62,095 nt of DNA from a virus (IMGVR_UViG_3300005747_000076:1-62095), one strand, 5' to 3'. Shown: positions 11,661-58,058, numbered from the stretch's first letter. Made by a program: numbers and translations. The notes: generated by a model not told the origin, from the sequence alone.

Positions 11661-12310
11661 GCTGACACCTTACTTAATACTTGTTTATTGTTTAGCATTA
11701 CATTGAAGCCTTCACATTTAAATAAACATCTAGTACGAGATAAGATAACTGAAGGATGTGTTAAAATTCCGTATTTGTGCATTATTCCATCAAAATAATA
11801 TTTATCTGCTTTTCTATTGTAGCCTCTATACTCAACAAGTATTACACCAAACAAAGCAGCATATGCTTCTTTAACTTCAATAGTTGCATCATTCCATAAA
11901 TCAGCAACACCAAACTGTGTATATAGTTTTTGTGTAGTATAGCCAGTTAAGAGTTCTGTAGATTTTTTAAAAACATAATTGAAGTCATCTTCTTTTAGTT
12001 CTTTCTTAAATTCTTCATAAACAACATCATGCCACGCTAACTGCCTATCAATGGTATTATTAATATTATTATTTGGCTCGTCTGTAGCAGTGTCTGTTAA
12101 CTGCCTATCAATGGTATTATTACTATTATTGAATGATTTTTCGTATTCTTTTAGTAATAGCTCTGAAAATACATATTCTTCATTAACTTTATTATAGTAT
12201 AGGTCATCATTACCTTTACTGAGAAGTTTTTTGGTTGATTTTAAACCTAGCCATTGCCCAGGTGCTTTACCATTTCTATCATTTAGTTCATAAATTTCTT
12301 TTGCATTCAT
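11657..12310 (-). CDS. Hypothetical protein carrying two in-frame copies of the 20-bp motif
   Basis: NNTIDRQL twice; AAGGAG RBS. Confidence 0.8.
   Translation of the reverse strand: MNAKEIYELNDRNGKAPGQWLGLKSTKKLLSKGNDDLYYNKVNEEYVFSELLLKEYEKSFNNSNNTIDRQLTDTATDEPNNNINNTIDRQLAWHDVVYEEFKKELKEDDFNYVFKKSTELLTGYTTQKLYTQFGVADLWNDATIEVKEAYAALFGVILVEYRGYNRKADKYYFDGIMHKYGILTHPSVILSRTRCLFKCEGFNVMLNNKQVLSKVSA
12038..12057 (-). repeat. Dispersed 20-bp motif, copy 1 (ATACCATTGATAGGCAGTTA)
   Basis: Exact match to four other copies. Confidence 0.95.
12098..12117 (-). repeat. Dispersed 20-bp motif, copy 2
   Basis: Exact match, 60 bp from copy 1. Confidence 0.95.
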
Positions 12311-12325
12311 TGTTTTCTCCTTATC

Positions 12326-12715
12326 TTAAAACGGTTTCATGTTTTCGTTTTCATCTTCTACTTGAAATAAGTATCTGTATTCTTTAATGTCATAAAAATA
12401 ATATTGATCATCTCTTATTATCAGGCCAAATATACAATCATACGGTGCACATTTCTTTTTATTAGTGCTAAACACTGCTTCTTTGTTTAACATAGGTGGA
12501 CATACATCAAAAAATCTTTTAATAAACTTTAAGTCTTTCATTAATTCTAACTTAATAGTTATATTTTCTCTGTAATAGTAATAATCTTCTAAATCAACAA
12601 TCATTTCAGTATCAATACAAAATAATTCTTTATCTTTATTAAATTCACGTCTTACATCAATAACTCTTACAGCGTATATACCATCCTTCAGGCCTTTTAA
12701 AAATAGATTGTTCAT
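12326..12715 (-). CDS. Putative single-stranded DNA-binding protein (DUF669-like)
   Basis: LKDGIYAVRVIDV N-terminus and acidic tail ending in PF (EDENENMKPF). Confidence 0.5.
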   Translation of the reverse strand: MNNLFLKGLKDGIYAVRVIDVRREFNKDKELFCIDTEMIVDLEDYYYYRENITIKLELMKDLKFIKRFFDVCPPMLNKEAVFSTNKKKCAPYDCIFGLIIRDDQYYFYDIKEYRYLFQVEDENENMKPF

Positions 12716-12832
12716 AACTATATATATCCTATATTAACTATAAAGTTAACATTTTGTTTCTTTTTATTAGCAAAACTTAAAAAAGTTTTACTTCTTGTAT
12801 AATATATATATGTATGAGGAAAAATTATGAAC

Positions 12833-12952
12833 AAAAAAAAGCCTAAACAGATAATACTTAGCCCCTTGTTAAATTGGGAATTATTAGTTCCCTAAGCATT
12901 TAATATGCCCTAGCTTTATGTGTGTGGCCGTGTTTATCAGTTCAGGTCTTTT
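12833..12952. other. Structured intergenic element, candidate small RNA overlapping a 22-codon ORF
   Basis: End-to-end pairing plus two internal hairpins; U8 follows the stem on the minus strand. Confidence 0.45.
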
Positions 12953-13118
12953 GTTAATAATATATCTTTATAAACTTTAATTTACTACAAACAAGGCAAT
13001 AAAAAACAAAAGAAATATAAGAGAGATATACTAATTACTATTGAATCGCTATTTTTCATATTAATTTATTTATCCTTTTAAAAGTTTTTGTTATATATAT
13101 TATAAAAAGGAGCTAATT

Positions 13119-13487
13119 ATGACAATTATTGCAGATAAAAATCAAGAATTACTAGAAGAAGTTATTACTAATTTTATGACAGCTTACCCATGGTTTGATA
13201 GAAGATTAACAAATATGGATCAAGAGCATAGAGACGCTGTTGGTATTTTGTTAGAAACTCATCCAAATATCATGTATCATTTAATTGAAGTTTTTGATAG
13301 AAACTTAGATGAAGATAGGTTTGAACTGAAAGAGGAAAATCATTGGTATTTAACTAGAGAAGAATACACGATGTTTGGTATGCTTGGTATTATGAATGAT
13401 GGTGATGAACTACATCTTCTTAATTACAAGAAAGGTAGTGGAGTAATAGGATTAGATGGTGTTGAAATGGATAGCACACAATCATAA
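13119..13487 (+). CDS. Hypothetical protein
   Basis: AAGGAG RBS, 122 aa. Confidence 0.8.
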   Translation: MTIIADKNQELLEEVITNFMTAYPWFDRRLTNMDQEHRDAVGILLETHPNIMYHLIEVFDRNLDEDRFELKEENHWYLTREEYTMFGMLGIMNDGDELHLLNYKKGSGVIGLDGVEMDSTQS

Positions 13488-13496
13488 TATTATGTT

Positions 13497-13691
13497 TTAT
13501 AAATCTACAACAAACTTATCGTCTGGGTCTATATCAACGGTGTCAATAATAATAACACGTTTACTTTCAGTCTCTTCTTTAGGTTTGTTAACTACAGGCG
13601 GCGGAATAGGTAATTCTAAAAAAGGTCTTTCACCTTCTTGTTCTATCCGTTGCCTTTCTTTAATTTGTTCTATTATATAATAATCGAGCAT
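13497..13691 (-). CDS. Small conserved hypothetical protein (MLDxYIIE...RPxLELP...RVIIID type)
   Basis: GGAGG RBS; resembles small proteins I recall from Myxococcota-like bacteria. Confidence 0.75.
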   Translation of the reverse strand: MLDYYIIEQIKERQRIEQEGERPFLELPIPPPVVNKPKEETESKRVIIIDTVDIDPDDKFVVDL

Positions 13692-13734
13692 TTTATTACC
13701 TCCATATAATTATATATAACAGAAAGTATTTAAA

Positions 13735-14484
13735 ATGGTACGCAAAACACAAAAAGGTTTAAATCATACAGTAAGATCAAGTCTTCCCGCTAACAGAGAA
13801 AACATGAAAAAAGCAGGAAAAAGAGCTTATAAAAACGGGATTACCTTGGAAAAAGCAGTTGAAGCTTATGGCAGATACTTAATTGATGAAGATAATTTTG
13901 AATGTGAATTATTTAGAAATCATGATGCAATGCAAAAAGCAAGAGGACGAGGTGGTAATCTTACAGCTTTTACAACAGGAGTAAGTTCATGTGATTTTAC
14001 ATTCTTTGTTAATGCAAAAACATTTAACTGGATGGAAGGAGGAATGATTGAGGCTAAAAGTAGAAATAAAAAATCTATTAATAAATCTGCAATAAGTCAT
14101 CACCAAAAAGATCAGTTAATTAGAATGGAAAAATTAGGTAAACAAGGATTAGTTTTAGTTTCTTTGATGGATGACAATGACGAAGCAGTATTTTTTATAG
14201 TTCCTATTGTTCATTGGTATAGAGGCCAGAAAAAAAGTCATAACATAGATAATTTACGTGATATTGGTTATGAAGTCCCAACAATAACTATATGGGATGA
14301 TAACCAAAAGGAGCACAAAGCACCAGATATACTTCAGATTTTAAAACAAATAGATATTGATGGTGAATATAAAGATGTGCCAAGTGCTTACAGAGAGCAA
14401 TATGATAACCGTAAATTAAAAAATCCAATATACTCTACAATTGATGAAGAAATTGATAGTATATATGATGATCATGAATTATGA
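13735..14484 (+). CDS. recU: RecU-like Holliday junction resolvase
   Basis: GITLEKAV, SSCDF, IEAKS, HHQ...L motifs of the RecU family. Confidence 0.8.
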   Translation: MVRKTQKGLNHTVRSSLPANRENMKKAGKRAYKNGITLEKAVEAYGRYLIDEDNFECELFRNHDAMQKARGRGGNLTAFTTGVSSCDFTFFVNAKTFNWMEGGMIEAKSRNKKSINKSAISHHQKDQLIRMEKLGKQGLVLVSLMDDNDEAVFFIVPIVHWYRGQKKSHNIDNLRDIGYEVPTITIWDDNQKEHKAPDILQILKQIDIDGEYKDVPSAYREQYDNRKLKNPIYSTIDEEIDSIYDDHEL

Positions 14485-14720
14485 GAAAACGGGAATATAG
14501 AATACCTGATAAGTTGCCACAACTAAAAAAAATACCTCAAGTAGGTGATTTAGTGGCAATACAAGATTTAGATGGAACTATATTCCCATGTATCGTTTTA
14601 CAAATAAATAAAAAGCTTACCAAAAAAGGTAAGCCTTCTAAATTAGTTTCCAATATTTCAGTTTTATGTGATAATAGAGTTTGTGCTGTTATGCTACATC
14701 AACTGAAAATGTTATATTAG
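14481..14720 (+). CDS. Small hypothetical protein, SH3/KOW-like pattern
   Basis: PQVGDLV...CIVLQI...ISVLCDN; ATGA overlap. Confidence 0.72.
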   Translation: MRKREYRIPDKLPQLKKIPQVGDLVAIQDLDGTIFPCIVLQINKKLTKKGKPSKLVSNISVLCDNRVCAVMLHQLKMLY

Positions 14721-15538: not shown

Positions 15539-15713
15539 TCTTTAATCTTTAGTATGTTATGTTATTATTATAACTAAGTATTATTGATTTTATAAAAAAT
15601 TTTAAATAAAAAAAAATTAAGAATTATTTGATATATATTAAGTAAGTATAAAAAAGAAAAAAAGTTATAAAAATACTTTCATTTTATTATACTATATATG
15701 TCCCCAATCAAAT

Positions 15714-15747
15714 ATCATACATTTTCTAATATTAGATTTTGTATGAT
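15714..15747. repeat. 34-bp interrupted palindrome in a long AT-rich intergenic region
   Basis: ATCATACA-TTT-TCTAATATTAGA-TTT-TGTATGAT. Confidence 0.85.
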
Positions 15748-15834
15748 TAATAAAAAATACTAAAAAAAAATCTAAAATATAGTTATACTACATAATTAGA
15801 TTAAGAACATCTATAAAAGAAAGCGAAACACAAT

Positions 15835-17460: not shown

Positions 17461-17503
17461 TAATTTGAATTCCTTTTTTATGATTGATTAATGTTAACAT
17501 AAG

Positions 17504-19383: not shown

Positions 19384-19395
19384 ATTATTTTTCCT

Positions 19396-21932: not shown

Positions 21933-22040
21933 TTACAATCTCCTGTTTTAATTCTGTTTAATTTGTTTGATGTCTTTATATATATACTCCAATTTACTGC
22001 AAAGATTAATCTGGAGTATATTCTCGTTATTGATATGATA

Positions 22041-27814: not shown

Positions 27815-29623
27815 TTAAATAGGATAAGGAACTCTGAACTGAATGTTATTATTTAATATGGTTTTAACGTTGAAACTAACATTTACTGTATCTTGTTTAA
27901 TTTCAATGTCAATATTATTTATATCAATTATTCGTGTATCTGCAATTAATGTGTCTCTAATGTAAGTTGATAATAGTCCTGTATCACTAATTCTACTTAA
28001 TGCACGCAATCCATAAGTTTCAAATCCAGGCACCTCACCTGCAACTGTTAGCAAAGCATTCTTTATATACTGTTTTATATTTTCCGCTCCACTTACTGTT
28101 TCTATTTCATTATTTAAATCGTTTAAACTGCAATCATTCCAGTCCATTCTAATATCATTTCCTATTAGGTCGCCTCGGTCCAAGAATGGGTTAATAGCTC
28201 TAATCAAAGTATCAGGTATATAAATAATGTCTCCAGGCTGAGGATAGTCGCCTTGGTTATTTCTTCTATAGTCTACCCAATCATTAAATTCTTGTATAAG
28301 ATCTGCATTTGCTGCTTCACCTGTTAACTTAGTTGCTATTTGAATTAAATCATCATTTTTATTAATTTCATACGGGAATGCATTGCGTCTATCAATGTTG
28401 CCTGAACCTTTGCCTATATTTGTATTAAGAAGACTTAAGTTCTGTTCATTTGAAAGCCATTCACCTAATTTATATTGTTGTAAGTGTCTTTGATTGAAAT
28501 ATCTTCTATCAACTACGCCTCTTAAATTTTGGCTTTCATTAATAAACTGAGATAATTCTGCAATAAATTGACTATTTCTTAAGTCTCTAGTAAAATCACC
28601 TGTTAATCTAGGAGTATTTAACATGCCTGAAACTAATTCATTTCTAGTTTTAACTAGTTCAGGACTTCCTAGTGTTTCAAGAGCATCTGTTAAATCATTA
28701 AAAGTTTTTCCAACACCTGTAATATTATCTCCTAATGCAACTACATCACTAATAACACCTGCAGCATTTGTAGTTAAAGACCCGATACTCTTAGAAACAT
28801 CACCTACTTTATTAAGTGCTGCGCTGGCATTTCTTATTGTTCCTCTTACACCTGAAATATAGTCATTTGAAACATTGTCAACTACATTTGATAATGTTCC
28901 TATAGCTCCTCCTACTGCGTTTATATAGCCATTTGCTGTATCTAAAGCACCTAATATAATATTATTATATGCTGAGGAATATGCATAATCATAAGCTTTT
29001 AATTGAAGTCTATATCTATAATCATGTTTATATTGTGCATTTTTACCATATGAAAAAGATAAAGGTTCTACTGCTAAATGTAAATCTTCATCAATACAGC
29101 GCAATATTAACTGTATTGTTTTAGCGTTTGAGCCTGTTTCTAATATTTTATTACTATACTCTTCTGTTGAAACAATTAATTTATCTTTAACACCGTAATC
29201 TAGGTTTGATAATTCAGTATATCTTTTTAAAAACTCATCAAATTCTTTAAAAGCATCATTTCCTGTTAAATTTGATATTCCACCATCACGTGTATATGCA
29301 GTTCTAAATGCCGTTCCTGATCTACCTTCAAATACAATGTCATGAGACCTGATAGTATTGACTTCCCTTAAAACTCCTCCTAATGTATATGTTATACTAT
29401 GCGGATTTATTCTGTTATATTGCATACTATCAGGGTCATAGGGAAAAGATATAACACTATCTACTTTACTTCCTCTTCTAATTTCTAAATAATATTTAGC
29501 AGGAATTCTTTGCAGTTGACCCCAAAAACCATTAGGATCTGCACCAAATCTATTAAACCCGGGTATTTCTTTTCTACTCCCAGGTAATGTTAAATTACTT
29601 GATAATGTTTTTGAACTGAACAT
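27815..29623 (-). CDS. Baseplate protein: tube-initiator-like N-terminus, LysM domain, gp25-like C-terminus
   Basis: YEINKNDDLIQIA...PQPGDIIYIP (LysM); VSGAENIKQ...GEVPGFETYG...DTRIIDI (gp25-like). Confidence 0.75.
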   Translation of the reverse strand: MFSSKTLSSNLTLPGSRKEIPGFNRFGADPNGFWGQLQRIPAKYYLEIRRGSKVDSVISFPYDPDSMQYNRINPHSITYTLGGVLREVNTIRSHDIVFEGRSGTAFRTAYTRDGGISNLTGNDAFKEFDEFLKRYTELSNLDYGVKDKLIVSTEEYSNKILETGSNAKTIQLILRCIDEDLHLAVEPLSFSYGKNAQYKHDYRYRLQLKAYDYAYSSAYNNIILGALDTANGYINAVGGAIGTLSNVVDNVSNDYISGVRGTIRNASAALNKVGDVSKSIGSLTTNAAGVISDVVALGDNITGVGKTFNDLTDALETLGSPELVKTRNELVSGMLNTPRLTGDFTRDLRNSQFIAELSQFINESQNLRGVVDRRYFNQRHLQQYKLGEWLSNEQNLSLLNTNIGKGSGNIDRRNAFPYEINKNDDLIQIATKLTGEAANADLIQEFNDWVDYRRNNQGDYPQPGDIIYIPDTLIRAINPFLDRGDLIGNDIRMDWNDCSLNDLNNEIETVSGAENIKQYIKNALLTVAGEVPGFETYGLRALSRISDTGLLSTYIRDTLIADTRIIDINNIDIEIKQDTVNVSFNVKTILNNNIQFRVPYPI

Positions 29624-29637: not shown

Positions 29638-29657
29638 TAACTGCCTATCAATGGTAT
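29638..29657 (-). repeat. Dispersed 20-bp motif, copy 3
   Basis: Sits between the stop at 29660 and the AAGGAG RBS of the next gene. Confidence 0.95.
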
Positions 29658-29659
29658 TA

Positions 29660-30523
29660 TTAATTATTTTTTAGAGGTGTTTGTATGTAAGGATTGATTG
29701 CCTTACGACTATTTGTTTTTGCTGTTGACGATGTTATAGATAATGGTGAACCTACTATAGGTCCATTAGTTTTCATATATAACGCGCTTTGTGTATCTTC
29801 TATAGCTTTTTGTGTTTCTTCTGCTGCTTCTGTAAAAAAGTTATTAGAAGTATAAATAAGAGCCTGTGCAGTATGTTCTTCAGCAGCTAAAGTAAATTGT
29901 TGTTCTAGTATTGGAGATGCTTGTTTAATCCACTCAGACTGTGCATTAATTTTATCTTCTAAAACCTTTATATAACTGAAAAGAATATCAATGAATTGAC
30001 TTCCATCCAATATATTATCTCCACATTTTCCATATCTACTAATTCTTAAAACTGCTTCTTCGTTTAATTGTAGCCTTATTGATTTTTTACTATCTAAAAC
30101 AATACCATTTAATGATGTCAAGTTTATATAATTTCCATCATTCAGCATTATATAGTCTCGAGTTGTAAAAGCTTTTCTATCACTATCATTTGCTGCTATA
30201 GATACACCTTTTTCTAATACAAGATGTGAAGGTTTTAAAGCTCCTCCTATTGCTAAAACAGGAGCATTTTCCGAGAACATTAAAACATGAACTAGACCTC
30301 CTACTTCTAATGGGTAATGTGTATAAGCTGATCCATTAGAGCTCCCAGAATTAATAACTTCAACATTTCTATGTATCTGCCCGTCATTTAATTTAATAGT
30401 TAATATAGGTTTAAGATCACTGCTTCTAATAACAACGTCTACTATTTCACCCAGTAAAGCTCTTGGATTAGATATTTCAGTTATTTCTTGACCTAATGAT
30501 TGGTATACTGGTGCATGTATCAT
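29660..30523 (-). CDS. Baseplate spike-like protein (gpV/gp5 OB-fold)
   Basis: GEIVDVV...HYPLEVGGLVHVLM...PVLAIGG; position in the module. Confidence 0.65.
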   Translation of the reverse strand: MIHAPVYQSLGQEITEISNPRALLGEIVDVVIRSSDLKPILTIKLNDGQIHRNVEVINSGSSNGSAYTHYPLEVGGLVHVLMFSENAPVLAIGGALKPSHLVLEKGVSIAANDSDRKAFTTRDYIMLNDGNYINLTSLNGIVLDSKKSIRLQLNEEAVLRISRYGKCGDNILDGSQFIDILFSYIKVLEDKINAQSEWIKQASPILEQQFTLAAEEHTAQALIYTSNNFFTEAAEETQKAIEDTQSALYMKTNGPIVGSPLSITSSTAKTNSRKAINPYIQTPLKNN

Positions 30524-43907: not shown

Positions 43908-45131
43908 TTATTTTTTATCTTTGTAATATCTTTGTATGTAATTCATCATATCTTTTACAGGCATGTTTAATTGTAGCATTCCCATAATAAGTTCTTTGAT
44001 TTGTTCAGGAGTAAGACCTTCAAGTTCAATTTCCATTTCTGGACCTTCTTCTTCTTCTTCCTCGTCGTCTTTTCCTATATTCATATCTGCAGAAGCTAAT
44101 TCTTTTTTCTTATCTTCCAAACTTTCAGGCTGAATTGGACTGAAATCTGTTTCTTTCATTAGACCTTGTAGAAATCTCATATAATCAAGCATTTCTTTTC
44201 GGTCCATTTTATCCATTTCTTCATCAGTCTTATATTGACCTTTTTCAAATTCATGCGGGAACATATCTTTGTCCTGAGGAGGATTTACTTTGCTTGGTGC
44301 AACGACGCTTTCCTCTTCTAAATCTTTTAAATAGTCAGGATTTACATCTTTATCCATTTCAGGTTTAATCATTTCTTCTTTATGTTCTTGCTCTAAATAA
44401 TGAAATGATGTTTGTAAATATTCTTTAGACATTGAGATTTTCTTTTGCACCCATTCTGGTAAATCTGCTTCTTCACCAAAGCTCTCAAGTAAATTTACAA
44501 GTTTTTCTGCATACTCACAACTAAGTCTTGCCTCACCTAAACTCATATGTAAGTCATTATATTCATCATTCTTTTGTAAATCTTCAGTCATTGTTTCTTC
44601 TTTCTCTATGTTATTTAATATTGATTTTACTAATGCTACAGTAGCTTCTGTATTACATGGCTGATGTGTTAAACTAACATTAAGAACTTTAGACCTTGTA
44701 ATAATATTAGGATTTTTATTATCACGTGCTAAAACTTGACCTTCAATACTAAATCCTATTTGTCTAATATTGCCTGCGCTTTTCATTGCTTTATAATTTT
44801 CAACAATATCTTTAACAATTTGTTTCTTAGCATATAAAACACCTTTTATAGATGTTGCAGGCTTTCCTTTATGTATAATTTTATTAACTGAAAGAGGTGC
44901 GCCAACAATATGACCAGGTAAATTAGAATGATCATAATTAAATGCGCCGTTTTTTAGGCAATAACTCCAATCAATTCCATCCTGTAATATTACTTCACCA
45001 GCAGTGTCTTGGTGTTCTGTTGTTGCAATTCCTTCAATATCAATTGTTTCTTTATCTTCTGCCTTTGACAAATCAAATGTTAGAGGCTGAAATTTACTAA
45101 ATACGTCTATACTCATATTAATTCCTCTCAA
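43908..45131 (-). CDS. Prohead protease with long acidic C-terminal extension
   Basis: IEGIATTEHQDTAGEVI, NYDH, GFSIEG, VSLTHQPCN. Confidence 0.92.
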   Translation of the reverse strand: MRGINMSIDVFSKFQPLTFDLSKAEDKETIDIEGIATTEHQDTAGEVILQDGIDWSYCLKNGAFNYDHSNLPGHIVGAPLSVNKIIHKGKPATSIKGVLYAKKQIVKDIVENYKAMKSAGNIRQIGFSIEGQVLARDNKNPNIITRSKVLNVSLTHQPCNTEATVALVKSILNNIEKEETMTEDLQKNDEYNDLHMSLGEARLSCEYAEKLVNLLESFGEEADLPEWVQKKISMSKEYLQTSFHYLEQEHKEEMIKPEMDKDVNPDYLKDLEEESVVAPSKVNPPQDKDMFPHEFEKGQYKTDEEMDKMDRKEMLDYMRFLQGLMKETDFSPIQPESLEDKKKELASADMNIGKDDEEEEEEGPEMEIELEGLTPEQIKELIMGMLQLNMPVKDMMNYIQRYYKDKK

Positions 45132-45579
45132 ATCTCGTGTTTAGCGCCTCATTTAAAGGCTTTCCGTTATCTAATAGTTTTCGAAGCTGGTTTAAAGCAT
45201 GCCCTCCAACAACATACCATTCAGGTCGCTTATTACCATAACGTTTTTGTATGTCAAATGCTTTGTTTAATTGTGATAATTTAATATTTTTGGCAGCAAT
45301 TGATTTAGCTATACGCCTAGAAGCTCCGCATGGACTTCTTAATTTACTCTTTTTAACACCAATCATTGCAACTATTGATTGTTCTATAATCGCGTCTCCT
45401 ATTGTTATAAAAGAATTATCCAGTTTATCTTCTGTTTTATTTTCTTTTTGTATAGGAGTATTTATATTAGTTTCTTCTAAAGTTTTTTCTGCCTTAATAA
45501 CAGTATCTTCTTTTTTAACAGAATAAGATTTCTTAATATCTTCTCTTGCTCTTTGAAGTATTTCAGTAAATGTAGTCAT
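45118..45579 (-). CDS. Head-associated hypothetical protein
   Basis: Between portal and protease; weak similarity to the portal C-terminal domain. Confidence 0.75.
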   Translation of the reverse strand: MTTFTEILQRAREDIKKSYSVKKEDTVIKAEKTLEETNINTPIQKENKTEDKLDNSFITIGDAIIEQSIVAMIGVKKSKLRSPCGASRRIAKSIAAKNIKLSQLNKAFDIQKRYGNKRPEWYVVGGHALNQLRKLLDNGKPLNEALNTRFERN

Positions 45580-45582: not shown

Positions 45583-45602
45583 TAACTGCCTATCAATGGT
45601 AT
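45583..45602 (-). repeat. Dispersed 20-bp motif, copy 4
   Basis: Ends 3 nt before ATG 45579. Confidence 0.95.
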
Positions 45603-45720
45603 ATATTATTATTTATTAGAGATAATAGTTTGATTTATATATCTTGTCTTGTATCTTATTATTAATATATATCCAATAATCTATTTGTTTTTGGAGTTTT
45701 TCTAAATTTTTATTGTTCAT

Positions 45721-49022: not shown

Positions 49023-52000
49023 TTAGAAACCAGTTATTGCTACGCGCTTCCATGTATTAGATGCTGTGCAAATATATAGGAAGCCACTATCAAAGCGAAG
49101 ATCACCTGCAGTTCCTGTGTCAGTGCCTGAAAGAGGAGCTGAACCACCCATTCTCATCGCACCAATCAAGTTGCCGTTAGCTTCAACTGTTCCTGCCTCA
49201 ATATCCGCAAAAGCAAATCCTGCATCGCCTGTATCAACAGTAGTTGTAGGCTCCGAAGTAGCAGTAAATGCTTTGAATTTGTCGTCGGTCTCATCAAATG
49301 CAAATCCGCAGAAGCTAGAAGTATTGCGTTGTGAATAGAAACCATGATCAACTGCAGATGTATTATTAACACCAAGCTCGATAAGTGTATCGGAAAGTGA
49401 TAAGTTAGCACCTGATGAAATGATTTGGCCTGAAATTACTGCGCTTCCAAGAATAGAAGCACCGCCAGTAATAGTAAGATTACCACCAGCTTCAAGGTTG
49501 TTTGTAACAGAAACGTTAGAAGGAAGACCTACAGTATAAGTTCCACCGCTTTGTGCAACTTCACATTCATTCGCTGTTCCTTGAATTGTAAGAGTTCCGC
49601 CAAGAGCAACATCACTTGAAGTAGTGCCATCAGTAAATGATAGGTGATCATTCAAAATCATGCTGTTTTCTACTGCATCAGGTGCAATAGTAATAGCAAT
49701 GTTTGTGTCCCCTGTTCCATCAAATGAAGCACTACCTGCAGCATCACCACTAATTTGGATATTTCGTGCTGTTTCCAAAGCTGTTGCAGTTGCAGCATTA
49801 CCAGTTGTATCACTATCAATAATTGCCTCAAGTGCAACAGTAAGTTGATTAGCAGCTGCTGAGTATGAAATATCAATATCTTGGCCACTTACAAAATCAA
49901 CGTCGGAGCCAAGAGTAATATTTTCTTGTGCAACTCCATCAACCTTAAGTCCCCAATGGTCGTTAGCAAGTTTGGTATTTTGAATACTTCCAGTTTGAAT
50001 AACTGGAGATAACTGCACGTTCCCGGTGCCATCAAAACTAACTGATCCAGCAACAATTTCAGTTGAAGCCATATTAAAGTTTCTAGAAGTTTCTAGAGCA
50101 GTAGCAGTAGAAGCATTACCTGAAACATCAGCAGTAATTGTAGAAGGAAGGCCAATAGTGAAATCATTATTTAATGAAGACCAAACAACTTCAACTTCAT
50201 TGCTTGTTCCCTTAATTTCAAATTCACCACCAAGTGAAATAGCTTCAGAAGTAACACCATCACCAACTGAAATTGTGCTATTAGTAAGTTTACTGTTAGC
50301 AACGCTTCCTGCTTGGATAGAAGGAACTAATACTACGTTTCCTGTTGCATCATAAGAAACTGCAGAAGCAACGATTTCACTAGAAGAAATACTAAAGTCT
50401 CTTGCTGTTTCCTGAGCAGTAGCTGTAGCAGCGTTTCCTGTAGTATCTGCAGTAAGAATTGAAGGAAGATTATAGGTAATCTCATTATCAACAGCTGAAT
50501 AACTTAGAGTTAAATCACCACCCTTAGCAAATTTAAGTGTTGAACCGAGAGGACGATCATAATCTACAGAGTCTACCTGAATTACTAATTTATCATTTGC
50601 CAACATGTCGTTTGTAATTTGATCATCAGCAATAGATGTTGTAAGACTAACGTTCCCCGTTCCATCAAATGAAACTGCAGCTGCTTGAACTGGACCTGAA
50701 CCAATGCTAAAGTTGCGTGCTGTTTGTAGTGCAGTTGCTGAAGAAGCATTGCCAGTTAATTCAGCAGCAATAGTATCAGGTAAGCCAATAGTAAATGTGC
50801 CAGCTGAATAACCAACTTCTACTTCGCTACTTGTTCCTTGAATTACAACGTCGCCACCTAGTGCAATATCACTAGAAGTAATTCCATTGCCAAATCCAAT
50901 ATCACTATTAGTAAGTTTAGAATTAGCAACGCTGCCTGATTTCAATGAAGGTGCAAGCTGAACGTTTCCAGTTGCGTCATAAGATACTGCAGCAGCACTC
51001 ATCTCTGTTGAGTCAATGCTAAAGTCTCTAGCAGTTTCTTGTGCAGTAGATGTAGCTGCATTGCCGCTAGTATTTACGTTAATTGTTGAAGGAAGGCTGA
51101 AAGTAAGATCATTATCAACTGCGCTGTAAGAAACAGAAACTTGTGAAGCAGTTCCGTTAAAGTCTAGTTTTTCACCTAATTGGACTCTTTCTTGTGAAAC
51201 ACCATCAACAAAAATATCTAGTCCATTATTTACCATCATTGAGTTTTCAACAGAAGCTGCTTGAATTGTAGAAACGATGTTAGCATTTCCTGTTCCGTCA
51301 AATGAAACAGAGCCTGCAACGTCGCCGCTCAAAGAAAGAGTGCGAGAAGTTTCTAATGCAGTTGCTGTTGAAGCGTTTCCTGTAAGTGCACCAACAAAGC
51401 TTGTAGCAGAAACAGAAGAGAGTCCTGAAACGTCTGTTGCGAGTGATGCTGTGAAAACACCGTCAGTATAACCTATTTCAATTTCATCGTCGGTGCCATT
51501 AATTTGTAGAGATTGGCCAAGTTGGCGCTCTGTAGAAGTAACACCATCACCAAATGTAATACCTGGGTTAATCATCATTGAGTTAGCAACTGAAGAAGGT
51601 TGGATTGTTAAATCAACAGCACTTACATCAGCTGATCCGTCAATTGAAAAACTACCTTCAACATCACCACCTGTAAAACTAACAGTGCGTGCAGTTTGGA
51701 AAGCTGAAGCTGTATCAGCATTACCTGTCATATCACCAGTAATATCACCTTCAATATTAGCAACAATAACTGCTTTGTTTCCTGCAGAAAGTGTAGGAAC
51801 TGTAGAAGTAGGCTCTGTTGCTAAATCTTTAAATAGATAAAACTTCCCATCATCAGCATCACGGAAAAGCCCGTGGTATTTGTCGCTTCCATCATTTGAT
51901 AAACCATAAAAACCGATGTCAATTGCATCGCTGCTGTTATCTTTAGCAAGTTTAATGAGTGGATCAGTTGCTTCTACTGTTGAAACTGAAAGTGCTGTTT

Positions 52001-52154
52001 GAGTTCCAGTAACTGTTAAATTACCTTGAATTTCAACATTACTTGAGAATGTTCCTGTCTCGGCTTGAATATCTCCAATGTGAGCTGTGCCCCATTTCTT
52101 GGAAGAAGAGCCAAGATCATGGCCTTTATTTGTATTTGGTCTTAATGCAGACAT
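49023..52154 (-). CDS. Repeat-built virion fibre protein
   Basis: Seven ~105-aa GNA..A.A..TAR repeats; C-terminal GTAGDLRFDSGFLYICTASNTWKRVAI fibre motif. Confidence 0.85.
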   Translation of the reverse strand: MSALRPNTNKGHDLGSSSKKWGTAHIGDIQAETGTFSSNVEIQGNLTVTGTQTALSVSTVEATDPLIKLAKDNSSDAIDIGFYGLSNDGSDKYHGLFRDADDGKFYLFKDLATEPTSTVPTLSAGNKAVIVANIEGDITGDMTGNADTASAFQTARTVSFTGGDVEGSFSIDGSADVSAVDLTIQPSSVANSMMINPGITFGDGVTSTERQLGQSLQINGTDDEIEIGYTDGVFTASLATDVSGLSSVSATSFVGALTGNASTATALETSRTLSLSGDVAGSVSFDGTGNANIVSTIQAASVENSMMVNNGLDIFVDGVSQERVQLGEKLDFNGTASQVSVSYSAVDNDLTFSLPSTINVNTSGNAATSTAQETARDFSIDSTEMSAAAVSYDATGNVQLAPSLKSGSVANSKLTNSDIGFGNGITSSDIALGGDVVIQGTSSEVEVGYSAGTFTIGLPDTIAAELTGNASSATALQTARNFSIGSGPVQAAAVSFDGTGNVSLTTSIADDQITNDMLANDKLVIQVDSVDYDRPLGSTLKFAKGGDLTLSYSAVDNEITYNLPSILTADTTGNAATATAQETARDFSISSSEIVASAVSYDATGNVVLVPSIQAGSVANSKLTNSTISVGDGVTSEAISLGGEFEIKGTSNEVEVVWSSLNNDFTIGLPSTITADVSGNASTATALETSRNFNMASTEIVAGSVSFDGTGNVQLSPVIQTGSIQNTKLANDHWGLKVDGVAQENITLGSDVDFVSGQDIDISYSAAANQLTVALEAIIDSDTTGNAATATALETARNIQISGDAAGSASFDGTGDTNIAITIAPDAVENSMILNDHLSFTDGTTSSDVALGGTLTIQGTANECEVAQSGGTYTVGLPSNVSVTNNLEAGGNLTITGGASILGSAVISGQIISSGANLSLSDTLIELGVNNTSAVDHGFYSQRNTSSFCGFAFDETDDKFKAFTATSEPTTTVDTGDAGFAFADIEAGTVEANGNLIGAMRMGGSAPLSGTDTGTAGDLRFDSGFLYICTASNTWKRVAITGF

Positions 52155-52351
52155 ATTTTTTACCTTTCATTGTGCAATCTATGTGCGATTTTAATTGTTT
52201 TGATTAAATCTATTTAGACGCATACTATAAAATCTTAGTATAATTTATTTTATTGAATATTTTGATGTCGTAAAGGAGAACATTAAAGTCCTCCTCTTAT
52301 TATATATTCACCAATATTTCTTTTTTCAAAGAATTGATGAAATATTTTTAA

Positions 52352-55300
52352 TTATGGGATTGGATAACCTGCATATTTTCCTGTAAATTCAACATTTCCA
52401 TCACCAATAACTGCGAAGTTTTTATCTCCATTAACAGGAGCTTTTTCTCCGTAAAATACTAGGTCTGAAACGTTAGTAGTAACAAGATCATTGAAGTTTA
52501 TTTCCCAAGGTCCAAGGTGTGCCTTAAACATAAGAAGTGAGCCATCCATCTCAACAGCGTCTGCAGAATTATCATCCCAGAATATTCCTCCTCCACGTGT
52601 TTCAATAGCATCAAGTCTAAGTTCAGCAGCATCCATATCAGTTTGATCTGCTTTAAGAGCAACTGCATCAGCATTAACTTTTGCTTGTGTATCAAGAGCA
52701 GAAATCTCACCAACAATTGATGTTGCACTGTCTAGATAATTTGTTCCGCTACGTGCAACATGTGAGCCATCAGTAGCTAATCCTACACCAGTTTGAGTAT
52801 CATCTAACTCACTTTGTAGGTTAGCAATATCGCTTCCTCCAAGGCCAGTAATATCATCAGCATTTGATTTAACTTGTGCATCGAGTGCTTCAATAGCAGC
52901 TTTGAGGCTTCCTGAAATATAGTTTGTTGAACTATAAGCAGTTTTTGTTCCGTCAGTGCTTAGGCCTGCAGAAGCCTTGATATTGAGTTGGATTTGATTA
53001 AGAAGATTTTGATTTGTATCAAGAGTTTCCAAAGCGCCAACAATAGATGATGAACTATCAAGGAAGTTTGTTCCAGAAATACTTAGACTTCCATCTGTTT
53101 GTAATCCAACGCTTGCCTCAACAGTATCAATCTTTCCACTTAATGTATTATCAGCAGAAATTCTAGAAGCTGCTTCTGTATCTATATTATCTTGTCTTGT
53201 TTTAACTGCTGCATCCAATAATTCCATGCCAGCTTTAAGTGAAGAAGCAGAGTTAAGATAATTTTGACCTGTGAATGAAACGAATGTTCCATCAGCTGCT
53301 AATCCTACTGCAGTTTCAATAGCATCAACCTCAGTTTGAAGTGCAGAAACACTTGCCGATGAAGCCTTAGTTCCTATCGCGTCTTCATTTAATTTAATCT
53401 GCGCGTCCAACAGAGTGGTTTCTCCAATAACGTTTGTCGCACTGTCCATATAATTACTTCCGCTTCGAGTAATATATGCACCGCTTGCTGATAAACCAAT
53501 TGAAGTTTCATGAGTATCTGCCAATGTTTGTAAACTAGAAATTGCAGATGAATTTGTTGCAATATCATCATCATTAGTTTTAACTTGGCTATCCAATGCA
53601 CCAAGATCTGCCTTGAGGCTACCTTGACCTAGATAATTGTGATCTGCTGGTGAGGTATAACTACCGTTTGCCGCCAAACCAATACTTGCCTGAGATACAT
53701 CTAATTCACTTTGTAAAGCTGAAACTGTAGCTGAAGAAGCTTTAGTAGCAATTGCCGAAGCGTTAGTAGCTATATCTGTCGCATTATCCAATATTCCATC
53801 AGTATTAACTTTAATTTGTGCGTCTAATTTATTATCTGCATCTTTTAAAGAAGTTGCTGCTGAAATATAATTGGCACCTGTATTAGCGCTATAACTTCCA
53901 TCACTTCCAAGTCCTGCTCCGCTTTGTGTAGTATTGACTTCACTCTGTAGAGTTGCAATATCTGTTTCTACATCTAAAATAGCAGAAGCTCGGTTTGTAG
54001 CTTCGGTAGTAATGGCATCTGCATTTGTTTTAGCTTGACTATCCAATAATCCTAATGCATTTCTAACAGATGTTGAAGAAGCTAAGTAATTAGAAGAAGC
54101 AGGAGCCTGATATGCACCATTAATAGTTAATCCAACTGAAGTTTCAATAGCATCTACTTCACTTTGCAATGATGTAAGAGCTGCTTCATCGGAAGTTAAA
54201 CGACTATCAAGTGAAGCAATATCGCTATCATTAGAAGCTATAGCATCTGCATTGTTCTTTACTTGTGTATCTAACTGGCTAACAGCGCCTTTTAATGTTG
54301 AAGCAGTTGCATAGTTGCCAGTAAGAGGTGTATAACTACCATCTGTATTTAATCCTACACCGCTTTCAATTCCATCAATTTCAGCCTGCATTGCAGTAAT
54401 AGTTGCTGAAGATGCGAGAGAAGCTACATCACTTTGTAGTGTAGCAATGTCGCTATCATTTGAAGCTATTGCATCAGCGTTAGATTTAGCTTGTGCATCA
54501 AGTAATGTAATTTCACCACGTATACTAGTTGCAGCGTCCAAATAATTTGATCCACTTCTTCCTTGGTAAGCGCCTGTTGCACTAAGACCAATAGAAGTTT
54601 CATGTAAATCAACAACTGCTTCGAGTGATGTAAGATCTGCCGCATCTGCTTTAGATGTATTTAGACCTGAAACATCGCTTTGCAATGTAGATACATCACC
54701 CTGTAATGAAGTAATATCACTAGCATTACCTGAAATATTGCTTGTATTTGTAGCAATGTTTGATGTATTAGTATTAACAGTAGTTGTTAATGAAGAAACA
54801 TCAGAAGCACTTGCCTTAAGTGCAATATTATCCGCATTGCTTTTAATTTGCGTATCAAGTAAACTATCTGCTGCTTTTAATGATGTAGCAGATGATAAAT
54901 AATTACTAACTCCAGGAGCAACATAAGCACCAGTATTAGAAAGTCCAGCGCCAGCCTGTGTTGTATCAACTTCACCTTGTAATGCTTGAATTTCTGCAGA
55001 AGTTGCACCACTGCCAGCTGTTAAAGTAGCTACAGTAGCTTCAAGGTTTGTAATATCATCTTCATTAATCTTAGTTTGTGCATCAACTAAAGATAAAGCT
55101 TCTTTTGTAGTTGTAGCACTATCCATATAATTGCTGCCACTATGTGCAGAATATGTGCCGTTTGCATTTAGACCAACAGCTGCTTGTGAAGCATCAAGCT
55201 CCGCTTGCAATGCTGTAACTGTTGAACTATCAGCTTTTCCACTTACTGAAGTTTGTAAAGAAGAAATAGATAATTCAGCAGTGTCTAGGTCGCTTTGTGT

Positions 55301-56911
55301 ATTAGAAAGTTGACTATCCAATGCATTGATTTCACCGCGGACCGAAGTTGCGCCTGAAATATAATTACCACCTGCATTAGCAGTAAATGATCCATCAGTA
55401 TTTAATCCTACAGAAGCTTCAATTAGGTCAACTTCGCCTGTGCTTGGTGTAGAAGCTATATGTGAAGCCAAATCTGCCTCAACTACATCCAACTCGGATT
55501 GTAATGTAGAAATATTACTTGTGTTAGTAGCTATGCTTGCTGTATGTGAAGAAATAGTAATTTCAGCTGCATCCAAATCGGTTTGAAGTGTATCAATTTC
55601 ACCTTCTGCTGCTGTTAGTCTTGTATCTATTCCACCAATACTAGCAAGATTTGTTGCAATACCTGATGTATTTGTAGAAACACTTGATTGGAGTGTCGCA
55701 ATATCACTATCATTTGCAGAAATTCCATCAGCATTAGATTTAACTTGAGTATCTAGTTTTGTTATTTCATTTCTAACTGATGTAGAACTACCAAGATAAT
55801 TTGTGCCAGTAGGAGCAGAATATGTTCCATCAACATTAAGTCCAACACTTGCTTCAATAGCATTTACTTCTGCAACGTTTGCATTGTGTTCTACTTCATG
55901 TGCGTCAATAGCATTATTAATAGAAATAATATCTGCAGCATTTGTAGCGGCGCTAGCTTCTACTGCATCCATTTCAGTTTGTAATGTAGAAATATCACCT
56001 TCAGCTGCAGTTAAATCTGCTGCCAATGCATAAGAAGATAATGAGGTTTGATCTGCTTTTAAGGAAATTGCGTCCTCATTAGTTTTTATTTGCGCATCGA
56101 GTAATGTAATCTCACCATAAACAGATGACTCACCATCTATATAGTTTGATCCACTTCTTACTTGATAATTCCCATTTGCATCCAATCCAACAGAAGATTG
56201 AGTTGCATCTAATTCATTCTGTAAATCTGTAATTGCTTGTGAACTACCTAAACTTGCAATTGCTGTTGTGTTAAGTGCTACTTGAGCATCAACACCTTCA
56301 ACAGCAGCTTTAATAGAAGCAGTGAGTCCAAAGTTGTTATTATTAGTATAAGCAGGAAGTGTTCCATCACTGTTTAAACCAACTGAGGTTTCAATAGCGT
56401 CAACTTCATCCTGTAAGTCTTGGATATTCCCGGCACCCATTGAGTTAATAGCATCTGCATTTGCTTTGATTTGCGCGTCTAATAAACTATCTGCATTCTT
56501 TAAAGAAGTTGCACCTGAAATATAATTGGATGATCCATCTGCTGTATATGTGCCATCGTTATTTAATCCTGCACCTGCTTGAGTATCATCTAGTTCTGCT
56601 TGTGATGCAGTGTTTGGAGGAACTGATTGACCGCTTTCAAGGTCGCTAATTCTATCTTCAAAATCATCTGTTAATGCTTGAATAGTTGAAAAATAATTTT
56701 CATCATCACCAATTGCTGCCGCAAGTTCATTCAGCGTATCAAGAGCTTGAGGTGCTCCATCAAGTAGCGCGTCTAGTTGGGCTTTTACACCGGCAGGACT
56801 TACTGCTAAATCCTCTCGTGTGCCGGCAGTAGTTTCTTCAACTGTAGCAATACGAACAGGACCTTCCGTAGTTTGGGAAGCGAGTCCTTTTGTTGATATA
56901 AGTGTTGCCAT
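52352..56911 (-). CDS. Long segmented coiled-coil fibre protein
   Basis: N-terminal GAPQALDTLNELAAAIGDD motif; 17 GLxxxGx-loop-NY repeats separated by heptads. Confidence 0.85.
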   Translation of the reverse strand: MATLISTKGLASQTTEGPVRIATVEETTAGTREDLAVSPAGVKAQLDALLDGAPQALDTLNELAAAIGDDENYFSTIQALTDDFEDRISDLESGQSVPPNTASQAELDDTQAGAGLNNDGTYTADGSSNYISGATSLKNADSLLDAQIKANADAINSMGAGNIQDLQDEVDAIETSVGLNSDGTLPAYTNNNNFGLTASIKAAVEGVDAQVALNTTAIASLGSSQAITDLQNELDATQSSVGLDANGNYQVRSGSNYIDGESSVYGEITLLDAQIKTNEDAISLKADQTSLSSYALAADLTAAEGDISTLQTEMDAVEASAATNAADIISINNAIDAHEVEHNANVAEVNAIEASVGLNVDGTYSAPTGTNYLGSSTSVRNEITKLDTQVKSNADGISANDSDIATLQSSVSTNTSGIATNLASIGGIDTRLTAAEGEIDTLQTDLDAAEITISSHTASIATNTSNISTLQSELDVVEADLASHIASTPSTGEVDLIEASVGLNTDGSFTANAGGNYISGATSVRGEINALDSQLSNTQSDLDTAELSISSLQTSVSGKADSSTVTALQAELDASQAAVGLNANGTYSAHSGSNYMDSATTTKEALSLVDAQTKINEDDITNLEATVATLTAGSGATSAEIQALQGEVDTTQAGAGLSNTGAYVAPGVSNYLSSATSLKAADSLLDTQIKSNADNIALKASASDVSSLTTTVNTNTSNIATNTSNISGNASDITSLQGDVSTLQSDVSGLNTSKADAADLTSLEAVVDLHETSIGLSATGAYQGRSGSNYLDAATSIRGEITLLDAQAKSNADAIASNDSDIATLQSDVASLASSATITAMQAEIDGIESGVGLNTDGSYTPLTGNYATASTLKGAVSQLDTQVKNNADAIASNDSDIASLDSRLTSDEAALTSLQSEVDAIETSVGLTINGAYQAPASSNYLASSTSVRNALGLLDSQAKTNADAITTEATNRASAILDVETDIATLQSEVNTTQSGAGLGSDGSYSANTGANYISAATSLKDADNKLDAQIKVNTDGILDNATDIATNASAIATKASSATVSALQSELDVSQASIGLAANGSYTSPADHNYLGQGSLKADLGALDSQVKTNDDDIATNSSAISSLQTLADTHETSIGLSASGAYITRSGSNYMDSATNVIGETTLLDAQIKLNEDAIGTKASSASVSALQTEVDAIETAVGLAADGTFVSFTGQNYLNSASSLKAGMELLDAAVKTRQDNIDTEAASRISADNTLSGKIDTVEASVGLQTDGSLSISGTNFLDSSSSIVGALETLDTNQNLLNQIQLNIKASAGLSTDGTKTAYSSTNYISGSLKAAIEALDAQVKSNADDITGLGGSDIANLQSELDDTQTGVGLATDGSHVARSGTNYLDSATSIVGEISALDTQAKVNADAVALKADQTDMDAAELRLDAIETRGGGIFWDDNSADAVEMDGSLLMFKAHLGPWEINFNDLVTTNVSDLVFYGEKAPVNGDKNFAVIGDGNVEFTGKYAGYPIP

Positions 56912-56937
56912 TTTTTACTTGTCCTTTCTTTCTTTAA

Positions 56938-57306
56938 TTAGTCTTCAATAAAACCAACGTATAATTCAACGTCTGTTGCTGCAACGTTAGTAAAGGTTAA
57001 TTTTAAAGCATCAAATACTGGATCTGCATCTTTTCTTCCAATCAATACAACATCAACACCTGCATCTGCTAATGCACCTTCTTGTGAAATGAAAGGTAGG
57101 AAAAAGTCGCTGTCTGCGCCTGCTGGTCTAAAATCAACCTTAAATTTTCCTGCTGCATCGTATGAATTACAAGCAATTTGTGCTTTTGTGAACTGTTGGC
57201 TTGGATTAAAACCAATGTTTCCTGCATCTAATGTAATTGATAGTTCATTATTACCATCTTTATCAGCTGCTTCTAAAACAAATCTTCTTACTTTAACTTG
57301 TGCCAT
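56938..57306 (-). CDS. Putative virion protein
   Basis: Start at ATG 57306 after GAAAGGA; first gene of the fibre operon. Confidence 0.7.
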   Translation of the reverse strand: MAQVKVRRFVLEAADKDGNNELSITLDAGNIGFNPSQQFTKAQIACNSYDAAGKFKVDFRPAGADSDFFLPFISQEGALADAGVDVVLIGRKDADPVFDALKLTFTNVAATDVELYVGFIED

Positions 57307-57385
57307 TATTATTTTCCTTTCTTTATTATATGAAATAAAATAGCTTGTTATGGGCGGCAATTACTGAAATATGTAATGTGCCTAA

Positions 57386-57637
57386 TTAACTGGGTAATTT
57401 GAGAAATGGATATACGTCTTTAATCTTCTTAGCAAAAAAACTTCCTTTACTTTCTGCCATTAAAAAAGACCTATATACTGAGGGAGGTAATGCAGAATAT
57501 AAATATACACCGCCTCCTGAAAATTTAATAATCATTGTATTAGTATAATTACAATATTTTACTTTATCTATATTGCTACTACAACAATCTTCATCATTGT
57601 CATTAAAAGAATACAATAATGGGCTTATACTTTTCAT
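57386..57637 (-). CDS. KTSC domain protein
   Basis: SSNIDKVKY...IKFSGGGVYLY..LP..VY..FLMAESKGSFF..IK. Confidence 0.92.
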   Translation of the reverse strand: MKSISPLLYSFNDNDEDCCSSNIDKVKYCNYTNTMIIKFSGGGVYLYSALPPSVYRSFLMAESKGSFFAKKIKDVYPFLKLPS

Positions 57638-57767
57638 TTATTTACACTCCATCCTATATTATATATCACATGACATTTAATTTTATTATATTTTTACACA
57701 AATTTTTCTAAAATTTAAACATTAACGACATAATTATACTATATGTATAAGAAAAGGAAACATTTTT

Positions 57768-58031
57768 ATGGATAAAAAAAAATACGCTGCTTCTACTGAA
57801 TATATGAATTTGGTTGATATTGCTAAGATAATGACTGAAAGAGGATATAAAATGAACCACTCAACAACACGCAAATATCTTTTATCAGGATTATCAAAAA
57901 TAGCACATACATTACTAGTATATGAAGGCTATACAGAAGAAGAAGCAGATAACATGGCTTATGATATAGCAAAAAGCCCAGAATTCCATGAATATGTTAA
58001 GGATATGTTAACAGAAATCTATAACAAATAA
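57768..58031 (+). CDS. HTH protein (sigma region 4-like)
   Basis: MNLVDIAKIM...NHSTTRKYLLSGLSKI. Confidence 0.65.
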   Translation: MDKKKYAASTEYMNLVDIAKIMTERGYKMNHSTTRKYLLSGLSKIAHTLLVYEGYTEEEADNMAYDIAKSPEFHEYVKDMLTEIYNK

Positions 58032-58038
58032 TATTAAT

Positions 58039-58058
58039 ATACCATTGATAGGCAGTTA
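58039..58058 (+). repeat. Dispersed 20-bp motif, copy 5 (opposite strand)
   Basis: ATACCATTGATAGGCAGTTA between two plus-strand genes. Confidence 0.95.

Follow-up and report, generated by a model that had tools for sequence, protein, structure and literature searches.

We identified a family of short, directional DNA boxes that are physically coupled to the gene for a miniature polymerase and differ in sequence from lineage to lineage. They were detected in a viral genome of 62,095 nt (IMGVR_UViG_3300005747_000076, positions 1-62095; hereafter the window) and in its relatives. In the window, the box is the 20-mer ATACCATTGATAGGCAGTTA, present in five exact copies, and the polymerase is P0001, a protein with family-A-like features. 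A link between this motif and the mini-polymerase had been put forward as a hypothesis in the initial annotation of the window, and it is now supported by the presence of the box family within the polymerase gene itself in six lineages of P0001 homologs. We tentatively read the boxes as directional recognition or start sites of P0001, similar to origins or priming sites, a reading that we regard as quite possible rather than probable.

A conserved box coupled to a polymerase gene

The copies of the 20-mer lie on the minus strand at 12038, 12098, 29638 and 45583 and on the plus strand at 58039, and all five run with the local genes. Their number, positions, strands and contexts are as first annotated. 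Together with an adjacent A/T tract, they define the following features, in which ORF denotes an open reading frame and RBS a ribosome-binding site:

Box I-a, 12098..12133, minus strand: 20-mer at 12098-12117 and A/T tract at 12118-12133, in frame in ORF 11657-12310
Box I-b, 12038..12073, minus strand: 20-mer at 12038-12057 and A/T tract, 60 bp downstream of box I-a; the tandem pair is also present in the related contig G002
Box II, 29638..29673, minus strand: box and A/T tract, flanked by the stop of ORF 29660-30523 and the RBS of the baseplate gene 27815-29623
Box III, 45583..45618, minus strand: box and A/T tract, 3 nt before the ATG of ORF 45118-45579, downstream of the portal gene
Box IV, 58023..58058, plus strand: 20-mer at 58039-58058 and A/T tract, 7 nt past the stop of ORF 57768-58031, in an accessory island without counterpart in the sister lineage D
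Box-hosting ORF, 11657..12310, minus strand: 217 aa, with a linker that carries boxes I-a and I-b; relatives only within the window lineage

Boxes I-a and I-b each read NNTIDRQL in the frame of the 217-aa ORF. This ORF was related to only 3 clusters among 5.8 billion proteins, belonged to no Pfam family and showed no relationship to the polymerase (hhalign probability 0.3). The other three of the five copies are intergenic. Box II lies 2 nt past the preceding stop codon and 14 nt ahead of the baseplate ATG, with AAGGAG between box and ATG, and box IV is located 91 nt ahead of ORF 58150-59319.

Allowing up to 3 mismatches revealed no further match to ATACCATTGATAGGCAGTTA in the window (mean of 0 in 100 shuffles), and the 14-letter core at the same tolerance had 10 additional sites compared to 7.3 expected, which is chance level. 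The box class is all-or-none, and the scan for degenerate copies that had been suggested earlier revealed none above chance. The loose skeleton ATTGAT-N6-TTA occurred 15 times compared to 3.2 expected, but this pattern also corresponds to common codons (Ile-Asp-x-x-Leu), and codon structure was not taken into account in the shuffles. Identity between pairs of copies extends over 20-29 bases; the longest, 29 bases, is shared by the copies at 12038 and 29638. The 16 bases upstream of the box were at least 83% A/T in every column of 12 copies (window, G002 and G003), which bears out the AT tract described before. The pseudo-palindrome proposed for the core is only partial: the skeleton TA-CA-TG-TA is present, and it agrees at 8 of 11 positions. 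Position 7 (T or A in relatives) is the only commonly variable letter and also the center of the pseudo-palindrome.

In bacterial genomes (596 Gb), the exact 20-mer was present in 3 records corresponding to 2 independent loci (a Balneolaceae metagenome-assembled genome and two Photobacterium), with ~2 expected by chance, and we treat these matches as chance. They are of the A variant (L078 6798, L079 1766, L080 4258) and occupy an orthologous intergenic site in both Photobacterium species; no phage-like features were noticed within ±90 bp of them.

The exact 20-mer was also found in three other viral contigs. Contigs G001/G002 and G003 are colinear with the window at ~65-77% DNA identity; G001, G002 and G003 contained 4, 5 and 2 box copies, respectively, at orthologous places and with 0-2 mismatches, while a reversed-pattern control gave 0. 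At four orthologous sites compared between the window and G002, 77 of 80 box letters were kept versus 486 of 700 flank letters (96% vs 69%). In relatives with ~70% DNA identity, each orthologous box retains 19-20 of its 20 letters, and the 3' twelve letters did not vary among these copies. These data show that the box is under selection, because five perfect copies occur where none is expected and because the box is kept better than its flanks; the same contrast between box and flanks excludes a neutral mobile repeat. In line with the initial annotation, the motif is a directional cis element specific to the phage. Copy number shifts between close relatives. Box II is missing from G002, in which the stop codon and the RBS are simply closer to each other, and at site III, which follows the portal gene, the window has a single box, and G002 and G003 have a tandem pair each.

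Sister lineages carry boxes of their own. Among 25 loci found via the major capsid protein (MCP), only 5 contain the box of the window when up to 4 mismatches are allowed. Upstream of the ortholog of 45118-45579, the sequence was readable in 15 of the 25 loci, and in 10 of these 15, representing 4 of 6 lineages, a tandem pair of the lineage's own word was present. The boxes at site III are as follows:

Lineage A (the lineage of the window), site III: ATACCAWTGATAGGCAGTTA
Lineage B, site III tandem pair: CAACAATGGTTATACGTTA
Lineage C, site III tandem pair: CCAWTGTTGATAAGTTA
Lineage D, site III tandem pair: ATACCATGTAGCATAACAAGTA

When aligned, the boxes share a skeleton consisting of ATT, then G/A-R-T, six lineage-specific letters and YTA, which the box of the window (ATT GAT AGG CAG TTA) fits. 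In lineages B and C, AGGAG directly follows the box. The lineage D word was found twice in tandem in front of the head genes and as single copies in the polymerase gene and behind the tail-tube gene. A lineage D box in L043 (15257-15349) is antisense to its flanking genes and is located directly after a terminator hairpin between the tail-tube gene and the next gene; the orientation rule is strong, but not absolute. Synthesis from this antisense box, if it is a start site, would stop at the terminator hairpin and give no more than a short antisense product. A 20-nt repeat in L031 was rejected as a coding repeat of the scaffold protein. We also noted a conserved ORF of ~34 aa (LxKQIDxW...; 45616-45720, minus strand) between the portal gene and box III, which is flanked by both boxes in lineage C and preceded by a box in lineage D.

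Of the homolog lineages with available DNA, six (G005, L071, L072/L073, L074, L075 and lineage D) have their own box within the polymerase gene. G005 has the same gene order as the window, with a capsid identity of 49% and a polymerase 30% identical to P0001. Its box, GCTATTGATAATACCTTAAGA, was present in 3 copies: two of them in tandem, 51 bp apart, in the part of the polymerase gene that codes for the linker between the N-terminal domain and the palm, and a third at a distance of 9 kb, spanning the stop codon that ends another ORF and read in a different frame. Selection thus acts on DNA and not on the peptide, since this third copy is read in another frame and copies in the window are intergenic. 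L071-L075 are short metagenome contigs with other members of the P0001 family, in which the boxes were arranged as follows:

L071: one in-gene box
L072/L073: two in-gene boxes, 48 bp apart
L074: two in-gene boxes, 69 bp apart
L075: two in-gene boxes, 309 bp apart, agreeing at all 19 of 19 letters

The polymerase of lineage D (P0033) is very distant (pairwise E 0.002 to P0001), with recognizable motifs A-C and one box in frame. At the protein level, 10 of 29 family representatives had an exact repeat of 5 aa or more within their sequence, compared to 19 of 580 shuffled sequences, and in six of those ten it was located at approximately residues 41-58 and 141-152; where DNA is at hand, these peptide repeats are the boxes. 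The search for P0001-family loci was based on an alignment of 7 rows, as the alignment of 23 rows was too diverse and searches with single P0001 or P0002 proteins found nothing. In the literature, supplements apart, we found neither a description of boxes inside a mini family-A polymerase gene nor a paper on the box itself.

The P0001 polymerase and its genome

The genes discussed in this section are located on the minus strand, one directly after the other:

P0001, 4269..5279, minus strand: mini family-A-like polymerase, 336 aa, with an N-terminal domain of ~100 aa and a likely start at the ATG at 5270
89-aa ORF, 3998..4267, minus strand: directly downstream of P0001, an adjacency kept in the G002-like, G004 and L069 lineages

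The P0001 family is rare, with 30 related clusters among 1.84 billion representatives. In a family alignment of 23 sequences, R160, D184, K234, H308 and D309 were invariant, and these residues appear to correspond to the Arg hairpin and to motifs A, B and C in family-A polymerases, with R160 ahead of the palm and D184 and D309 as the catalytic aspartates of motifs A and C. Of the RxxxK motif of the fingers, K234 is invariant and no conserved Arg is found four residues before it. The AlphaFold model of P0001 had a pLDDT of 91.8. Its PDB matches listed by Foldseek were almost all family-A DNA polymerases (Klenow, Taq, Bst and T7 DNA polymerase), and its structural neighbors in the Atlas (TM 0.43-0.57) included PolA clusters and clusters fused to D5-type helicases. 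As judged from the alignment and the model, P0001 shows family-A-like invariant residues and probably a family-A-like fold. The N-terminal 100 residues were modeled as helix-helix-strand-helix-helix-strand-strand (pLDDT 84.7).

A complex prediction for P0001 and the 89-aa product gave a score of 0.21 versus a mark of 0.32, which is no evidence either way. The 89-aa product belongs to a group of small proteins of 77-114 aa with an invariant GGEL..W, which always follow P0001 genes without internal boxes (window 3998-4267, L057 10993, L065 4402, L066 5547 and L069 4389). Such a protein was missing in those lineages with in-gene boxes in which the downstream DNA was read (G005, L071 and L072/L073).

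The window represents a whole IMG/VR virus, which is labeled 'linear' and 41% complete in its record. Its large terminase gene is split by the record ends, with one part at 578 to 3 and the remainder at 62095 to 60977; the same gene is intact in L050, L052 and G004 (565 aa in G004), and the ends of the window abut, with one base missing at the junction. The window is a complete, circularly permuted genome of ~62.1 kb, and the rating of the record is wrong, because the terminase parts at both ends join into a gene that is intact in relatives. Gene content is myovirus-like, the minus strand carrying genes for portal, protease, capsid, sheath and baseplate. The phage comes from seawater; the sequencing runs in which it was detected were DNA runs from seawater and an estuary, available as contigs, and no RNA run was among them. 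Among cultured phages, no DNA match to the head module and no tblastn match to P0001 was found, and the MCP had only distant relatives with at most 31% identity, such as Bacillus SP-10-like phages. Besides P0001, no helicase, primase or polymerase was recognizable in the genome. Rfam and tRNA scans of the window gave no match. A scan for sigma-70 promoters found 97 compared to 93.2 expected, which is uninformative in A/T-rich DNA; terminator-like sites numbered 12 compared to 5.0 expected, and DnaA boxes (scanned as a 9-mer) 15 compared to 22.6, without clustering.

Several other features of the genome were observed. The 1519-aa coiled-coil protein (52352-56911) and the 1043-aa tail-fibre-like protein (49023-52154) contain many diverged internal repeats, up to 9 copies of 60-145-nt units. 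Two non-coding stretches, 10296-10565 (270 nt) and 8072-8317 (246 nt), have G+C above their surroundings and terminator-like hairpins, with no match in Rfam, and could be unknown RNAs or intron remnants; the latter adjoins a gene for a GIY-YIG (SegE-like) endonuclease (8318-9247). An intergenic repeat of 84 nt (3310-3393 and 6890-6973, 70% identical) contains the run TTTTTTAAAAAAAATT, and related A/T runs are found at 9327-9367, 15746-15784 and 58058-58094; these look like early promoter regions.

Possible functions of the box

The box is a candidate recognition site of P0001 because it keeps with the gene of this enzyme across large divergence while changing by lineage. We infer that P0001 binds the box and starts synthesis there, with DNA or RNA as product and a role in replication. 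In the mechanism that we propose, the 20-mer and its A-rich upstream tract would be the version, in the window lineage, of an asymmetric recognition box with the skeleton ~ATT-GAT / 6 lineage-specific letters / TTA. The N-terminal domain of P0001, which may be a winged-helix reader judging from its model, would bind the box, and the polymerase core would then initiate a chain de novo at or beside GATAGGCAGTTA, the 3' half that does not vary, and extend it in the same direction as the genes run. Under this scheme, each box would be an origin-like or priming site; the pair at 12038/12098 would correspond to those found within the polymerase genes of other lineages, with 29638, 45583 and 58039 as secondary start sites that have a single copy each. 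An origin-like reading is suggested by a classical origin layout, by the precedent of CCPol-MP (see below) and by the lack of any other recognized replication enzyme in the genome. Around the circle, the distances between the four box loci are 17.6, 15.9, 12.5 and 16.1 kb (probability of all gaps being this large 0.008, post hoc), and this even spacing is compatible with such a reading.

Several observations weigh against P0001 as the enzyme that starts at the box. Regarding the protein, P0001 had no sequence match in Pfam, PHROG or PDB, its fold matches were weak (best E 0.019, none at or below 0.001, TM 0.17-0.36), and the fold search with its N-terminal domain was not significant (best E 0.49), the first twenty matches listed being mostly winged-helix or related DNA-binding regulators. 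Regarding the sites, the polymerase gene of the window itself contains no box, and the tandem pair is located 6.8 kb upstream in the unrelated ORF 11657-12310. Three copies in the window lie within 3-14 nt of an RBS or ATG or just past a stop codon, as is more often the case for promoters or operators, and the even spacing is not kept in G002, which is without box II. No box was present at site III in L030-33 and L028, and none was seen in the 40-kb structural part of G005 or in G004. The bias for sense orientation is borderline, with 1 antisense box (L043) among ~8 loci. In addition, the tract beside the box is A/T-rich only in lineages A and D, A/C-rich in B and C, and GC-rich in G005; therefore, a shared unwinding element is not evident.

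The roughly even spread of a few copies of a long exact consensus would also suit sites of localized single-strand nicks in packaged DNA, which are known from T5, tf and phiKMV-like phages. The known sites of this kind are all in one strand, whereas 4 boxes on the minus and 1 on the plus strand were found in both the window and G002, and nicking would leave the pairs within the polymerase gene unexplained. We hold this explanation to be highly improbable.

The placement of boxes next to genes raises the possibility of a phage-specific promoter, which would be read either by P0001 as a mini RNA polymerase or by the host polymerase together with a phage factor, with transcripts beginning in the invariant 3' half. 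A promoter could account for the all-or-none conservation of 20 bp with an own version in each lineage, for the A/T tract upstream in lineage A, and for tandem pairs and co-orientation with genes. It could also account for the boxes at 29638 and 45583, which end 3-14 nt before an RBS or ATG, for AGGAG directly after the box in lineages B and C, for the position of the box-containing polymerase gene immediately ahead of late genes in lineage D and G005, and for box II, which resembles a cassette of ~30 nt inserted between two genes. The initial annotation had specifically proposed a likeness to T7-type promoters. This reading is not supported: no T7-like RNA polymerase was matched in the 70 ORFs of the complete genome (including Pfam RNA_pol, PF00940), and the T7-like letters are lost from the boxes of sister lineages. 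A six-frame search of G000-G003 for such a polymerase found none, and the same search matched nothing in control genomes either. Neither a multisubunit RNA polymerase nor a sigma factor was recognized in the window genome. Furthermore, the boxes do not head middle or late units genome-wide; they occupy only 4 loci in 62 kb, and most late operons and late intergenic regions have another recurrent element. Box III would be placed in a 5' leader by the element AAGATATAT ~35 nt upstream of it. Two boxes ~300 bp apart at conserved positions within a polymerase gene would be odd for promoters, G005 has no box across 40 kb of structural genes, and one lineage D copy opposes its flanking genes. We consider a promoter function unlikely, and the box is more likely a start or binding site of P0001 than a T7-style promoter.

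The AAGATATAT element was present in 5 copies (12960, 36457, 43713, 43797 and 45637), all on the minus strand and intergenic, compared to 2.4 expected, which is not significant. It resembles a promoter-like repeat of 41 nt present twice in L077 and may be the general promoter of this family. A second recurrent element, (T)ACGACATC(A/T)A, was found on the minus strand at 21967, 36484, 41320, 43602, 43774 and 52262, often just after a TATATA-like stretch and upstream of late genes; in the form ACGACATCWA, it had 14 matches at up to 1 mismatch compared to 4.8 expected.

A further possible function, without initiation, is that of an operator or regulatory site, at which the N-terminal domain of P0001, acting on its own gene, or a protein such as P0002 represses, blocks or loops:

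P0002, 57768..58031, plus strand: 87 aa, the helix-turn-helix (HTH) protein of the initial annotation; a restricted, weak candidate reader

Box III lies between a promoter-like element and a start codon, pairs of sites 48-309 bp apart would suit looping, and boxes within the gene of a DNA-binding protein would suit autoregulation. The earlier suggestion that the HTH protein reads the box still has in its favor that P0002 ends 7 nt before box IV and that one Atlas cluster faintly points to sigma-70 region 4 (19% of members, score 0.87). It is weakened by the lack of a Pfam match, by the absence of the locus from lineage D and by the lack of a homolog in G005 (blastp, E <= 1e-5). A dimeric repressor would need neither an asymmetric box nor its mostly kept orientation. 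Moreover, every family member joins the candidate binding domain to a catalytic core whose active-site residues are invariant, which argues that binding serves synthesis. An operator without initiation appears to us a rather doubtful, if reasonable, alternative. P0002 is part of the accessory island (~57700-60900), which also contains a 389-aa ORF, an Eco57I-like DNA methyltransferase (59469-60398) and a 113-aa ORF between the terminase and KTSC genes. In lineage D (L050), the terminase and KTSC genes are adjacent, without the island that holds box IV.

The boxes could also act only in the transcript, as a 5' leader, processing site or translational operator. Their sense orientation, the location of several copies directly before start codons and the G-poor, A-rich upstream tract, which would be unstructured as RNA, are in line with such an element. 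Judged by eye from the letters, however, the box has no hairpin potential, and Rfam gave no match in the window. In many lineages, copies lie well within coding regions; one intergenic copy is antisense and next to a terminator, and an RNA element would leave the coupling to the polymerase gene unexplained. We consider this explanation very unlikely. Known protein-binding sites were considered as well. An integration host factor (IHF) site was rejected as the spacing is off by one and the site is absent in G005, and sigma-54, Bacteroidota and T4-late promoter layouts did not fit; both were judged by reading the sequence. A target of the GIY-YIG homing endonuclease was rejected because it would not be expected to persist five times in the endonuclease's own genome.

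A bolder form of P0001 as the starting enzyme is that it is a self-contained, sequence-specific initiating polymerase, in which a winged-helix reader and a minimal family-A core would recognize a box of ~20 bp in duplex DNA and start de novo. We think this form improbable. If true, P0001 would be a miniature counterpart of T7 RNA polymerase or a promoter-dependent primase, with start sites in its own gene and ahead of selected late genes, and the smallest known promoter-specific template-dependent polymerase, forming a portable polymerase-plus-box module. Sequence-specific de novo initiation is the step separating DNA polymerases from T7-like RNA polymerases and primases. Already under our main reading, if the boxes are start sites of P0001, this uncultured family of marine myophages would have a compact module of one polymerase and one box, showing how a minimal family-A core gains this ability. 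The module would also provide an orthogonal enzyme/site pair of ~1 kb plus 20 bp, with natural specificity variants in sister lineages. Even if the mechanism is ordinary, such as an origin or operator, the finding of lineage-specific boxes at conserved positions within a polymerase gene remains.

Comparison with known systems

Like T7-type promoters, the box is long, near-invariant and directional, has an A/T-rich upstream part, occurs in tandem and within coding sequences, and exists in lineage versions. It differs in that no T7-like polymerase gene is present, in its restriction to four loci and in its presence within the gene of the candidate reader.

Origin iterons may be located inside an initiator gene, as is the lambda origin (ori) within gene O, with similar cases in other phages, and repeated boxes in the linker-coding part of a replication protein gene are the classical layout of a phage origin. 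The boxes described here resemble lambda ori-type iterons in that they are repeated in frame in the linker-coding part of a replication gene and are lineage-specific. They differ in number and spacing (1-3 boxes, 48-309 bp apart), in having dispersed copies near late genes and in that the gene codes for a polymerase and not an O-type initiator. In addition, the pair of the window lineage is located in a different gene, and the in-gene layout is seen only in relatives.

CCPol-MP of SCCmec is described (PMC7581432, PMC10061031) as a minimal or truncated A-family enzyme that primes de novo and prefers the origin repeats of its element. Similarly, P0001 is a truncated A-family-like polymerase on a mobile element, and in both cases a small gene follows the polymerase gene. 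In the CCPol-MP type of primase, the polymerase pairs with a small ssDNA-binding protein encoded beside it; for P0001, the kept adjacency of the 89-aa ORF makes the latter's product a candidate partner. In contrast to CCPol-MP, P0001 matches neither solved nor Pfam families in sequence, possesses an N-terminal domain of its own and is not accompanied by a Cch2-type helicase. TV-Pol enzymes are, according to PMC2579912, predicted primase-polymerases that also occur in marine viruses. They share with P0001 a minimal family-A-like core, a conserved Arg hairpin and two catalytic Asp residues. In P0001, the RxxxK motif is reduced to the invariant Lys, and its N-terminal domain is alpha/beta whereas that of TV-Pol is all-helical; the comparison concerns these features. 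By analogy, P0001 fits the idea of a minimal family-A primase-polymerase, and the CCPol-MP primase as well.

For nick sites of T5, phiKMV-like phages and tf, PMC3517423 reports consensuses of 9-20 bp, coevolution of nickase and site, and location of all sites in one strand. The boxes are similar in having few exact copies per genome and a consensus specific for the phage group, but they occur on both strands and are coupled to a polymerase gene. We rate the system as a putative origin or priming site with a dedicated initiator-polymerase.

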